Under the pieces are notes generated by a model. It made no database searches. It had not been told where the DNA came from and saw nothing but the letters and a program-made list of their open reading frames with translations. Shown piece by piece: positions 13,739 to 19,587 of a DNA stretch of 64,000 bases. The first letter of the stretch is position 1, and each line of letters starts with the position of its first letter. The position numbers and the translations under genes are program-made. Source of the stretch: a virus (taxonomy: Duplodnaviria; Caudoviricetes); the IMG/VR virus record IMGVR_UViG_3300031673_000001. The stretch is one strand, 5' to 3'.

Positions 13739-14458
13739 ATGCTAAATAAATCAGAAGTGTTAGAATATGTAAAGTCCAATCTAGGTTTTCCTTTTATGCA
13801 TCTTGAGTTAGAAGATGAACAAATACTGGAATATATAACTAAAAACACTCGAAAGACATTCTCTTATTATATTCCACAGAAAGTAATGACCTCATTGAAT
13901 ACTACAGTTGAGTCTAACAAGGTGCCTGGAAAAGGAAATGAATATTATATTACTGAACCAGATGGTATGGAGATATTAAATGTAGTTGATATTTACACAA
14001 CATCTGGTGAACTTTATATGTTTGGTCATCCACCAATGGGAGTGTTTTCACATTTTGAGTTGAGAGAATGGGCACTATCCGTGAGTATGGCAATGGATAC
14101 TAAAATGTTTTCTTCATTTGATTATACATTTGAGTTTAAACATCCTAATGTTATAAGAATTTCTCCTCTAACATCTGCACTTGGTTGGGTTGCTGTTGAA
14201 TATGAAAGAATGCAACCTGAGGATTTATCTGGAATACCCAATGATATTCAACTAGATTTTAAAAATCTAGCACTTGCAGATGTTATGATGGTTATTGGTA
14301 GGATTCGAAAAAGATATGGGGGAGGGACTCTTAGAACTCCATTTGGGGAGATTCCTCTTGAATCAGATGTGTATGATGAGGGGAAAGAGTTAAAGAGAGA
14401 GATCATTGAAAAATTAGAAAGATTATTCATCCCAAATGTGAGAATTGATTTTGGATAA
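13739..14458 (+). CDS. Neck protein (T4 gp13-like)
   Basis: N-terminal LGFPFMHLELEDEQI resembles gp13 LGAPIINVEL. C-terminal GRIRKRYGG...G..LKREIIEKL. Confidence 0.7.
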   Translation: MLNKSEVLEYVKSNLGFPFMHLELEDEQILEYITKNTRKTFSYYIPQKVMTSLNTTVESNKVPGKGNEYYITEPDGMEILNVVDIYTTSGELYMFGHPPMGVFSHFELREWALSVSMAMDTKMFSSFDYTFEFKHPNVIRISPLTSALGWVAVEYERMQPEDLSGIPNDIQLDFKNLALADVMMVIGRIRKRYGGGTLRTPFGEIPLESDVYDEGKELKREIIEKLERLFIPNVRIDFG

Positions 14459-15744: not shown

Positions 15745-16107
15745 ATGTACTGTCAGATATGCGGGAGAAAAGCGCATTGTCTGAATAATGGCAAAGGTCC
15801 TCTCATTTGTTGTGGAAAACCGATGACGAAATCATTAGTAGCTGAAGCTGAAGGATGGGTCGGTTTTCCCAAGGGATGGACAGACAGCAGCGTTGAAAAA
15901 TTTGGAAAAACACTTGTTAAGGGTGGTGCAACCAAAAAGAATTTTTTTGATAAGTGCGTCGAAAAAATGAAAGATAAAGTTGACAATCCACAAGGATTTT
16001 GCGCTGGGTTGAAGGATGAAGCTCATGGTTCAACACACTGGCGAGGGAAGGGAAAGACATCCCAACAAGTACGTAAAGATGTTAAGGCGCATCAAAATGT
16101 TACATAA
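15745..16107 (+). CDS. Desulforedoxin-like metal site fused to a phage domain
   Basis: MYCQICG...GPLICCGKPM matches the CxxC-x11/12-CC desulforedoxin pattern. Confidence 0.65.
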   Translation: MYCQICGRKAHCLNNGKGPLICCGKPMTKSLVAEAEGWVGFPKGWTDSSVEKFGKTLVKGGATKKNFFDKCVEKMKDKVDNPQGFCAGLKDEAHGSTHWRGKGKTSQQVRKDVKAHQNVT

Positions 16108-16115
16108 GGATATCA

Positions 16116-17246
16116 ATGCTCAAATATATCACCATAATAATAATATTTGTATTGATGCTTTTCGCATGTAGTGATAAAAAGAGTACGGATCCTATTACAA
16201 ATGATGGAAAGAAATGGAGAATAGGATATTATGAAGGTGGTCCTTATAAAGATTATCAGACATATTTTATAGCATTAGTAAAGGGATTAGAGAAATTAAA
16301 ATGGATACCTGAAGTAAATATTCCAAAACGTATTGGCAATAGCGATAACAGAGAAATATGGGATTATCTTTCAAAAATTGATAGTGAATATATAGAATTT
16401 GTAAAGGAAGCTTATTGGTCAGCTGATTGGTATGAGGAAAAACGGGATATTAATAAGTTAAATGCTATTGTTTATCTTCAAAAGAAAAAGCTCGATTTAA
16501 TAATAGCTGCAGGAACATGGGCAGGATTAGATCTAGCAAATAATAGTCATCAAATACCAGTTATAGTAATATCTAGTAGTGATCCTGTTAGAGCTGGTAT
16601 TATAAAGAGTTGTAAAGATTCTGGATTAACTAACGTTTATTCTCCTTGTGATCCTGAACAATATGTAAGACAAATAAGAGTTTTTCATAATATTGTAGAG
16701 TTTAAAAAATTAGGTATTGTATATGAAGATACACCAGAGGGTAGAATTTATGCATCTTTAGATGATGCAGATATAGTCGCTAAAGAAAAAAATTTTGAAG
16801 TAATTACCTGTATAGCTAGAGATTACAATCAAACTGATTATGAATCAATGCTACTTATGTATAAATGTCATGAAGAATTAGCTACTAAAGTCGACGCTCT
16901 ATATATAACAGCTCATCGAGGAACAGATCCTAAATTTATGCCAAAGGTATTGGAACCCTTATTTAAATATAAAATTCCAACATTCGCACAAGAGGGTCCC
17001 GATCAAGTTGAATGTGGAGTGATGCTGAGCATCGCCAGGAGTGATGAAGAAAATAGAGGTCTGTTCAATGCTACTACAATAGCAAGAATATTTAATGGAG
17101 AAACTCCAAGAAACATTAGTCAAATATTTAAAGAAGAAAAAAGAATAGTTATAAACCTGGAAACAGCAAGAATTATTGGATATAAAATTCCTAAATCCAT
17201 CATAGATGCTGCAGATTATACATATAAGAAGATAGAAAATGATTAG
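16116..17246 (+). CDS. ABC-type substrate-binding lipoprotein (ABC_sub_bind/TrpX-like)
   Basis: Lipobox LFAC. Motifs IPVIVISSSDPVRAGII, KKLGIVYEDT, DALYIT and IVINLETARIIGYKIP. Confidence 0.85.
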   Translation: MLKYITIIIIFVLMLFACSDKKSTDPITNDGKKWRIGYYEGGPYKDYQTYFIALVKGLEKLKWIPEVNIPKRIGNSDNREIWDYLSKIDSEYIEFVKEAYWSADWYEEKRDINKLNAIVYLQKKKLDLIIAAGTWAGLDLANNSHQIPVIVISSSDPVRAGIIKSCKDSGLTNVYSPCDPEQYVRQIRVFHNIVEFKKLGIVYEDTPEGRIYASLDDADIVAKEKNFEVITCIARDYNQTDYESMLLMYKCHEELATKVDALYITAHRGTDPKFMPKVLEPLFKYKIPTFAQEGPDQVECGVMLSIARSDEENRGLFNATTIARIFNGETPRNISQIFKEEKRIVINLETARIIGYKIPKSIIDAADYTYKKIEND

Positions 17247-18687
17247 AAAGAAATCAACATATAAGATTCTATTTGCATCATTCTTATTTGGAATTGCATT
17301 CTGGATACTTCAAAGCATTCAATATTATTTTTTATTTACTGAAAGAATAAGATTTTTAATTTTTCAAGCTCCTATGTCATTTATGGATTCTTTAATTTTT
17401 AATATTCCCCCCAATGATTTAATTGTTAGACTTTCATTTATATTAGCGTGTCTTATAGCAGGTATCTTAACAGCTAGATTTTTATATATTATACAAAATA
17501 GAACAATTGAACAAGAGAATCTAAAAATACAACTTATTCAATCTCAAAAAATGGAAACTGTTGGGGTATTAGCAGGTGGAATGGCGCATGATTTTAACAA
17601 TCTTTTAACTACAATATCAGGATATACTCAATTAATTATTTATGATAAGTCCGAAGATCATGAAGATTATAGTAAATTGCAAAAGATTATAAATTCTGTT
17701 GAAAGAGCTAATGAGATAACATCTAGATTACTTACACTTGGATCTAAAGTTCAAACCCAAAAAAAAATTATTAATTTAAATAATAGTATTGTAGAGTCAC
17801 TAAAATTATTAACCAGCACTATATTTAAAATGATTGAGATTAATAATTTTTTAGAAGATGCTCCTCAAATAATTGAAGCAGATTCTGGGCAGATTCAGCA
17901 AATTATAATGAATCTAGTTATAAATTCTAGAGATTCTATGCCAAATGGGGGCAAAATAACTATAACTACAGAAACTGTAACATGCCCAAAAGAATGTATA
18001 ATAAAACAAAAAAATTATAGCAATACCAGTACCTTTCCTAAGAGTGGAGATTATGTATTACTTAGTATTAAGGATAACGGGGGCGGAATTCCAAAAGAAG
18101 TAATAGATTCTATTTTTGATCCATTTTTTACTACCAAACAAATTAATAAAGGTACAGGTCTTGGTTTAACAATGGTTTATGAAATTGTTAAGAACCATGG
18201 AGCATACATAATATGTTACAGCACAGTTGGAGAAGGAACCACTTTTGAGATATATTTTCCATTGAGTAAAAAAGAAATTGAACCAGAACAATCCAGTGTA
18301 TTTATTGAAACAAAAAGTGGTAGTGAAACAATCCTGGTAATTGATGATGAAGAAAATATAAGAGATATAACCAAAACTGCGCTTAATAGAAAAGGTTATA
18401 ATGTATTTACTTCTTCTACTGGAGAAGATGGTTTAGATATTTATAATAATAATAAAGTAGATTTAGTGGTATTGGATATTATTATGCCTGGAATGGGAGG
18501 AATAAAATGTCTTTCTAAACTTCTTGAAATAAATTCTAAAGCTAAAGTTATTGCAATTAGTGGGTTTTCCAATAAAAACTCAAATGATTTCCTTAAATTG
18601 GGAGCAAAAAGATTTGTTTCAAAACCGTTTGATATTAATTACTTGCTTTTAGAAATTCGAAATACTTTGGATCAAAAAATTAAGTGA
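17239..18687 (+). CDS. Membrane hybrid sensor histidine kinase (HisKA-HATPase-REC)
   Basis: Two TM helices. H-box [14 protein letters not shown]-box [11 protein letters not shown]1 DNGGGIP, F-box FDPFFTTK, G2 GTGLGL. REC motifs LVIDDEE, LDIIMPG and KPF. Confidence 0.95.
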
Positions 18688-18699
18688 GGATAAATTATT

Positions 18700-19587
18700 A
18701 TGCCAAATTTTGACTATGCCAAACTTTATGATAATGCTCGTACAAATGTGGGTTTGATAAAAACATACTTGGGCAAACTTAATGGTTTATTAGTTCGAGC
18801 AAAAGAAACTGGCGATAAAAAATTAATAGATAAAGTTGAAAAAGGTATTCAGCATACAAGTAAAGTATTGAAGAATGGAACGAAAAAACTTGATGATATT
18901 AAACTAGGAACTTCTCATAAACCTACTGGAGCTAAACCTTTATCTTCAGTTCCAGTTCCAAAATTATTACCACAAACTCCAAAATCCGCTCCTCGTGAGT
19001 TTGATAATGTGCAACTTGTTGCATTTACTGGTGCAGCAATAGCTTTTACAGCTATAGTAGCATCTGCTATTTTATATAAACGATTTCTTAGTAGAGCTGC
19101 CAAAGCTTGTACAGGACAAAAAGGATTTCAAAAAGAAAATTGTATGACAAAGTTTAAAATAGCAGGTTATGAAGCTTCTGTAAAGTCATTACAAAGAAAT
19201 TTACCAGATTGTTCTCAAGCACAAGATCCTTTTAAATGTAAACATAAAATTCAAGATAAAATTGTTTCATATGCTGCCAAGATAAGAAAGCATAAAAAGA
19301 AATTAAGTGAAACTACATCTATGAATTTTCTTAATGGTTATTTAGAATATCTAAATGAAGATAGAGGTATTAATCTTCCAATTGAAGCAGATAATAAACC
19401 AAACTATATTAGAATCTGTATGATGCAAGAGGATGATAGAGTTAAAATTAGATGCCTTAGAAAATTAAAAGAGATAACAGCAATGAATCCATTTTATCAA
19501 TATCGTATTGATAGATTTGTTGATGCAATTACTAATACTTATGAAGCAACAAGAGAACCTGGATTCAATGAGTATAAAAATGATTGA
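18700..19587 (+). CDS. Putative head-packaged Cys-rich protein (paralog of 15002..15706)
   Basis: Hydrophobic helix, then LYKRFLSRAAKACTG...C...C...C. Internal YLEYLNE motif. Confidence 0.6.
   Translation: MPNFDYAKLYDNARTNVGLIKTYLGKLNGLLVRAKETGDKKLIDKVEKGIQHTSKVLKNGTKKLDDIKLGTSHKPTGAKPLSSVPVPKLLPQTPKSAPREFDNVQLVAFTGAAIAFTAIVASAILYKRFLSRAAKACTGQKGFQKENCMTKFKIAGYEASVKSLQRNLPDCSQAQDPFKCKHKIQDKIVSYAAKIRKHKKKLSETTSMNFLNGYLEYLNEDRGINLPIEADNKPNYIRICMMQEDDRVKIRCLRKLKEITAMNPFYQYRIDRFVDAITNTYEATREPGFNEYKND

Follow-up and report, generated by a model that had tools for sequence, protein, structure and literature searches.

A jumbo phage carries a binding protein and a hybrid histidine kinase as a gene pair descended from a bacterial family of two-gene sensors

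LuxP/LuxQ, TorT/TorS, XylFII/LytS and HptA/HptS are sensor kinases that depend on a solute-binding protein (SBP), which docks on a large periplasmic domain of the histidine kinase, and a review of such kinases mentions neither the binding-protein family PF04392 nor phages (PMC8050422). Here, we deal with a pair of overlapping genes, one for an SBP of that family and one for a hybrid histidine kinase, at positions 16116 to 18687 of a stretch of 64,000 nucleotides of viral DNA (Duplodnaviria; Caudoviricetes; IMG/VR record IMGVR_UViG_3300031673_000001), the whole of which is called the window below. In LuxPQ-type systems and in the phage pair alike, a binding-protein gene without a transporter stands beside the gene of a membrane histidine kinase, and LuxQ and TorS resemble the phage kinase in being hybrids. 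The general type I binding-protein fold of the phage SBP recurs in LuxP (Foldseek ranks 25-47). However, the LuxPQ-type kinases have a large periplasmic ligand-binding domain, whereas the phage kinase has a loop of ~26 residues between two helices, and its genes are borne by a phage.

Nearer to the phage SBP in family are proteins with solved structures. SP1069 (3LFT, Trp), VC_1101 (3LKV, Phe), CD0873 (6HNI, Tyr) and TrpX belong to the same Pfam family and have the same fold; CD0873 is a lipoprotein (PMC6816091), and the members of PF04392 with solved structures are uptake proteins whose ligand is Trp, Tyr or Phe (PMC10443332, PMC6816091). Those proteins have a transporter of the ATP-binding cassette (ABC) type as partner, in contrast to the phage SBP, whose partner is a kinase and whose identity to them is 18-22%. 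Cyanophages encode a host-derived periplasmic binding protein, PstS, which serves phosphate uptake via the host transporter and is not paired with a phage kinase. Another comparison is given by AgrC of the temperate Clostridioides phage phiCDHM1, which senses a peptide directly via a multi-pass membrane domain, with neither a binding protein nor a receiver domain. phiCDHM1 carries the agr genes agrD, agrB and agrC, the last for the histidine kinase, and resembles the present phage in having a host-derived membrane sensor histidine kinase without its response regulator (PMC3901668). A comparison of 224 jumbo phages is silent on histidine-kinase systems (PMC7824862), PHROGs includes kinase families, and a literature search brought up no report of an SBP-kinase pair in a phage. 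What is new at this locus is a putative SBP-dependent kinase of an unstudied subfamily that is maintained as a phage-specific mobile lineage. It is rather probable, in our judgement, that the pair serves the phage as a functional sensor of its own for signals from outside the cytoplasm, derived from a bacterial two-gene sensor family.

Both genes are intact and are encoded on the plus strand. The gene for the membrane-tethered, sensor-like SBP (16116..17246, 376 residues) and that for the kinase (17239..18687, 482 residues) lie exactly where an earlier note, made from the letters of this stretch, had placed them, and the overlap of 8 nucleotides described there is read from the sequence as ATGATTAG. 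A Shine-Dalgarno-like AAGGA (16106..16110, plus strand) ends 5 nucleotides before the SBP start codon, because of which the ATG at 16116 is favoured over an internal ATG taken by some gene callers; the AAGGA overlaps the stop of the upstream gene, and its letters are the same in three other assemblies. The SBP gene itself ends with TAG, and a TAA follows five codons on (17244-17264), so that readthrough would add 6 residues only.

Residues 106-367 of the SBP match PF04392 (ABC_sub_bind) with an E-value of 2.3e-19 and 70.2 bits against a gathering cut-off of 25.9. The family given by the earlier note is thus right, while the lipobox that it assigned to the protein is a loose fit: the N-terminal signal or anchor (16116..16169, plus strand, from sequence and hydropathy) consists of K3, a hydrophobic run, and then L15-F16-A17-C18, and Cys18 recurs in just 2 of the 20 closest homologues, the others carrying a plain N-terminal helix that is not cleaved. 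Among these N-termini, the conserved trait is membrane tethering and not lipidation. An AlphaFold2 model shows two alpha/beta lobes (mean predicted local distance difference test score, pLDDT, 87.5; predicted template modeling score, pTM, 0.82), and its top Foldseek matches are 3lft, 3lkv and 6hnj/6hni (template modeling scores of 0.72-0.80 by target, E-values of 1e-16 to 1e-18). The subfamily has, in addition, a region of its own near the N-terminus (about residues 26-105), in which the motif GYY-x-GG is invariant. The TrpX-like, aromatic ligand that had been put forward for the SBP rests on relatives at the low identity given above and outside this separate, kinase-linked subfamily, and by analogy this ligand class can be taken as a lead only. 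At window position 17013 the codon of residue 300 is TGT, for Cys, and contigs of four sequencing runs all have CGT, for Arg.

In the kinase, Pfam and the location of motifs bear out the earlier description of two transmembrane segments followed by HisKA, HATPase and receiver domains with intact active-site boxes. All domains lie on the plus strand. The HisKA dimerisation and phospho-acceptor domain (residues 111-169, 17569..17745) has H117 as its H box, which is invariant in 23 partner kinases; in the catalytic HATPase_c domain (residues 215-343, 17881..18267) the N, G1, F and G2 boxes are intact as N225/N229, D279-G281-G283, F293-F297 and G305-G307-G309; and the Response_reg receiver (residues 365-473, 18331..18657, Pfam E 7.9e-25) has the acidic pair D369/D370, the phospho-acceptor D413, S441 and K462. 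Ahead of these domains is an unannotated N-terminal input module of residues 1-100 (17239..17538). Hydropathy finds in it two hydrophobic segments, helix 1 (~9-33) and helix 2 (~60-86), with an outside loop (~34-59) between them. There is no periplasmic ligand-binding domain in those ~26 residues, no Pfam domain precedes HisKA, and the two-helix module itself is covered by no Pfam family. Its sequence is conserved, W22, P45 and R64 being invariant and D25, D50 and G75 nearly so. The module is rare, with 139 representatives at E <=0.001 among 1.84 billion proteins; a look-up in the Atlas finds it to resemble generic two-helix anchors of kinases, such as the transmembrane domain of ArcB (score 0.87), a lead only.

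Homologues were sought in 5.8 billion proteins, in JGI metagenomes and in GTDB genomes, and these searches revealed a large bacterial SBP family, mostly in Desulfobacterota and to some extent in Gammaproteobacteria, whose members are at most 49% identical to the SBP of the window. The two-helix module recurs in the first ~100 residues of the protein encoded immediately downstream of the SBP in 44 of 165 loci (phmmer E 1e-6 to 1e-32). All 23 module-bearing partners that are full length are HisKA plus HATPase kinases, 13 of them with PAS domains and 10 with receivers. On the SBP tree, moreover, SBPs with such partners cluster, as 7 changes are needed against 27.8 with shuffled labels. By its gene neighbourhoods, the SBP subfamily is dedicated to signalling, not to transport, and the earlier proposal that the pair senses something gains support from this linkage to kinases with the same N-terminal membrane module. 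Uncharacterised bacterial pairs, for example in metagenome-assembled genomes (MAGs) of Desulfobacteraceae, Desulfatitalea and Desulfovibrionaceae (loci L093-L104), share gene order, SBP subfamily and module with the phage pair. They differ in that their kinases usually have PAS, whereas the copy of the window is a minimal form, and in that they usually adjoin further hybrid kinases or small receivers, whereas the copy of the window has no kinase or receiver as a neighbour. The phage pair descends from this bacterial two-gene sensor family and was copied long ago. A host among Desulfobacterota is plausible from the nearest bacterial relatives.

The window itself is part of an uncultured jumbo phage of sediments, on a source contig of about 228-238 kb. 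It encodes two proteins like the beta subunits of phage multisubunit RNA polymerases, ribonucleotide reductase, UvsX, a Dda-like helicase and topoisomerase II, nearly all its genes are on one strand, and its content of guanine plus cytosine (GC) is ~30% throughout. A joint between host and phage sequences is the obvious danger in such a case, and the corresponding check had been set beforehand. Assemblies from ENA, JGI and Logan have the identical kinase on 17 contigs, with the same neighbours on every one. Three studies, one of them on marine sediment and distinct from the likely source, supplied runs whose Logan contigs cover the locus at even depth and bridge both junctions, and one such contig spans 14895-19507 with a single mismatch. 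As noted earlier for its richness in AT, the pair cannot be told from its surroundings by composition: GC is 0.308 for the SBP gene and 0.275 for the kinase gene, and GC at third codon positions (GC3) is 0.170 and 0.155, respectively, against 0.302+-0.026 (GC) and 0.162+-0.028 (GC3) in the 24 other large genes of the window. The pair is fully adapted to the phage in this respect. Because of the 17 contigs with the same neighbours, the bridging contigs and the phage-like GC and GC3, a host/phage chimera is ruled out, and the pair is not a misassembly.

Homologous pairs in other phages reveal more of its history. In quick trees with support from the Shimodaira-Hasegawa-like approximate likelihood ratio test (SH-aLRT), all SBPs at an identity of at least 53% form one clade (SH-aLRT 99 with 8 rows and again with 24 rows). 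It includes no sequence from a named bacterial genome except the fragment L085 (CBFCXS010000100.1), and its sisters, L093 from Desulfovibrionaceae and L039, are bacterial. L085 is 3.3 kb long with 31% GC and carries a phage-type SBP, 98% identical to that of L005, and a kinase; it is filed in a MAG of Candidatus Woesearchaeota and is probably a mis-binned piece of a phage. Taken at the level of the trees, the clade appears to be a phage-specific lineage, and its members lie in at least two unrelated phage groups. Group A (~30% GC) comprises the window and L001, which share, besides the module, two RebB-like genes (79-88% identity) and a Q_salvage gene (40%). Group B has 42-49% GC and comprises L004/L170, L169, L171 and L168. 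TerS, TerL (E 1e-32) and a portal protein (E 4e-54) are encoded by L004/L170, with which L169 is syntenic, and a tail protein (E 1e-57) is encoded upstream of the module in L171; L168 is placed in group B as a putative phage contig. Group B has nothing in common with the window except the module. The position of the module varies among the phages: replication and repair genes surround it in the window, in L004 it is placed between TerS and TerL, and in L171 it follows tail genes. SBP and kinase genes occur together in all phage copies. IMG/VR viral contigs gave no relative of the SBP with a single-protein or an alignment query, and among deposited phage genomes there were just two weak matches to the SBP, on short unannotated contigs, and kinase matches of at most 29% identity.

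It is the transmitter that differs between the two groups. Their SBPs are 55-59% identical and their kinases 27-34%. In the tree of kinase cores, group A is nested among bacterial PAS hybrid kinases, in a clade with an SH-aLRT of 98, and group B falls elsewhere on a long branch. Forcing the two together costs 47.3 log-likelihood units, with p 0.00064 in the approximately unbiased (AU) test, a value that is somewhat optimistic, as the group was named after a tree was seen; long branches are involved as well. Because the kinase cores of groups A and B are not sisters, the transmitter was in all likelihood exchanged behind a conserved input. The evidence is good but not final that SBP and two-helix module were conserved while the cytoplasmic transmitter was replaced at least once. 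In group B, a conserved protein of 142-148 residues is always encoded before the SBP gene and overlapping it (L004:9571-10017, L168:9598-10035, L169:9595-10026, L170:3034-3474, L171:6446-6874). Its N-terminus is rich in Arg, and it has a single membrane helix and a coiled-coil tail; it gives no Pfam or PHROG match, has no counterpart in the window and is a possible third component of the module. In group A, L001 has a second binding-protein-like gene (L001:14480-15322; Pfam NMT1_3; phrog_6856, E 8.9e-37) about 2 kb after its kinase gene.

These copies have been kept by selection, to judge from their divergence. The Nei-Gojobori ratio of nonsynonymous to synonymous substitutions (dN/dS) between phage copies is 0.08-0.48 across pairs, and the near-unsaturated pair L001/L005 has a ratio of 0.36 in the SBP and 0.23 in the kinase; these are rough, upper estimates, because dS is underestimated in genes so rich in AT. 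All catalytic residues are retained across phage copies that are just 55-62% identical. Both genes are thus under purifying selection, and the relaxed selection envisaged earlier as a way for the proposal to fail is not what the comparison finds.

How may such a pair work? After infection, both proteins would insert into the inner membrane of the host, where the anchored SBP would bind a small molecule of the periplasm as its putative ligand and would signal via the conserved two-helix module of the kinase and its short outside loop. The signal would alter autophosphorylation of H117 in one direction or the other, and the phosphate would pass to D413 of the built-in receiver and then, most likely, to a phosphotransfer protein or regulator of the host, none being encoded nearby by the phage. 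A weak support for contact between the two proteins comes from structure prediction: the segment 1-112 of the kinase against 22-376 of the SBP scores 0.46, while the best of 3 controls scores 0.00, repeated runs agree in >=88% of contacts, and the pLDDT of the partner is >=88. Of 80 solved complexes, 58 attain the mark that this score passes, as do 2 of 110 mismatched pairs, and among these passes scores of <=0.60 belong to only 7 of the 80 complexes yet to both mismatches; these counts apply only roughly here, as custom alignments were used. As to output, the search for partners covered ~104 kb of the ~230-kb genome, that is, the window and ~20 kb on each side. In the window phmmer finds neither a further receiver nor a further kinase core; there is no Hpt, Response_reg, ABC_tran or permease family among its 47 open reading frames of <=300 residues (Pfam, E<=0.01), and no Hpt, regulator or ABC family in the precomputed Pfam annotation of the flanks, so that the earlier report of a window free of ABC permease, ABC ATPase and output regulator stands. 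From the lack of an Hpt or regulator in these ~104 kb, we infer that the phosphate would feed phosphorelays of the host.

Several points weigh against reading the pair as such a sensor. The docking of the SBP would be of a mode without precedent, because the kinase exposes ~26 residues outside the membrane whereas the studied SBP-dependent kinases all have a sizeable periplasmic domain (PMC8050422). The missing Hpt or regulator in the searched part of the genome counts here as well, as do the roughness of the dN/dS values and the allele with Cys300 of the SBP, which is an odd one at a well-conserved column that in most relatives holds Arg or a different basic or polar residue. If the gap lies on the output side, the pathway may instead be completed inside the phage, the kinase passing its phosphate to a receiver encoded elsewhere, for example in a fusion of receiver and enzyme. 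The inspected stretch is less than the whole genome and leaves room for such a gene; no receiver or Hpt is found in it, however, and group B loci show no receiver gene near the module, and we consider a self-contained pathway unlikely. It is about equally improbable that the pair does not sense at all and that a constitutive kinase, phosphatase or phosphate sink jams or locks a phosphorelay of the host, with the SBP as its structural cofactor or as a relic. A hybrid kinase without an Hpt or regulator in the searched region would suit this role, exchange of the transmitter core between phage groups is what is expected if it is fitted to host partners, and phage proteins that interfere with two-component systems of the host are known (PMC10714779). 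Nevertheless, the SBP is the most conserved part across the phage groups, at 55-62% identity against 29-34% for the kinase, and is itself under purifying selection, which is hard to explain unless sensing of a ligand matters.

The SBP could also act alone, as a helper of nutrient uptake for an ABC transporter of the host in the manner of cyanophage PstS, the kinase being an unrelated passenger. Such a role would agree with the solved PF04392 proteins, which belong to amino-acid uptake systems (PMC10443332, PMC6816091). It is very improbable in the present case, since the bacterial SBP subfamily is followed by kinases and not by permeases, the two genes overlap and stay together in all the phage copies, and no ABC parts are found nearby among the Pfam-searched window reading frames of <=300 residues. 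Least credible of all is that the pair is a neutral, recently captured fragment of a host, or a chimera of assembly, with no role in the phage: the genes are of bacterial type indeed, but agreement of independent assemblies and bridging contigs, a composition fully adapted to the phage, and a phage-specific clade of deep divergence with intact motifs have largely refuted it. Thus, the sensor of signals outside the cytoplasm is what we prefer. A broader version of it can be offered only tentatively, namely that the pair is a portable chemosensor of phages in anoxic sediments, whose input is kept across unrelated lineages and whose transmitter is swapped to meet the phosphorelay of each host, and which tunes host physiology or the programme of the phage (lysis, lysogeny or virion output) to an external metabolite. 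An effect on the timing of lysis in particular, as proposed earlier, finds no support in the present results.

Well-studied sensing by phages, such as that of arbitrium and of VqmA-type quorum receptors, uses soluble receptors inside the cell. If the sensor reading is true, viruses could read extracellular chemistry through the membrane of their host, and this would be phage sensing of a kind other than that of the cytoplasmic quorum and arbitrium receptors. The pair also points to an unstudied family of bacterial sensors, a PF04392 binding protein with a two-helix kinase module, which could show how an SBP passes its signal to a kinase with hardly any periplasmic domain. For this purpose the minimal version of the phage, with its 376 + 482 residues, is a convenient form to test.

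As for the surroundings, the pair had been said to sit between virion-type genes. One virion structural protein is indeed encoded upstream (13739-14458; phrog_18911, E 3.8e-36), but the other neighbours are not of virion type: they are a RuvC-like resolvase, a desulforedoxin-like protein, a LigD 3'-phosphoesterase and unknowns. The desulforedoxin-like protein, of 120 residues with a Cys cluster (Desulfoferrod_N, E 1.6e-7), is encoded directly upstream of the SBP (15745-16107), and it is the stop of this gene that overlaps the ribosome-binding site of the SBP gene. It hints at an anaerobic host. As a third component of the sensor it was considered and rejected, since it is not kept beside the module in other phages. 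Just after the kinase is a gene for 295 residues (18700-19587) with weak tape-measure and DUF1247 matches; the protein has no convincing family and no usable match in the Atlas, where its model has a pLDDT of 0.63, and the gene is not conserved beside the module in L001. A scan for sigma-70 promoters and terminators gave fewer sites than in shuffled sequence. Farther downstream, at 21258-21600, contigs of three runs differ from the window by a joint that steps back 343 nucleotides and by 69 other letters, across two tandem RebB-like genes of 108 residues each, which suggests that variants of this tandem pair in copy number or arrangement exist in the population.

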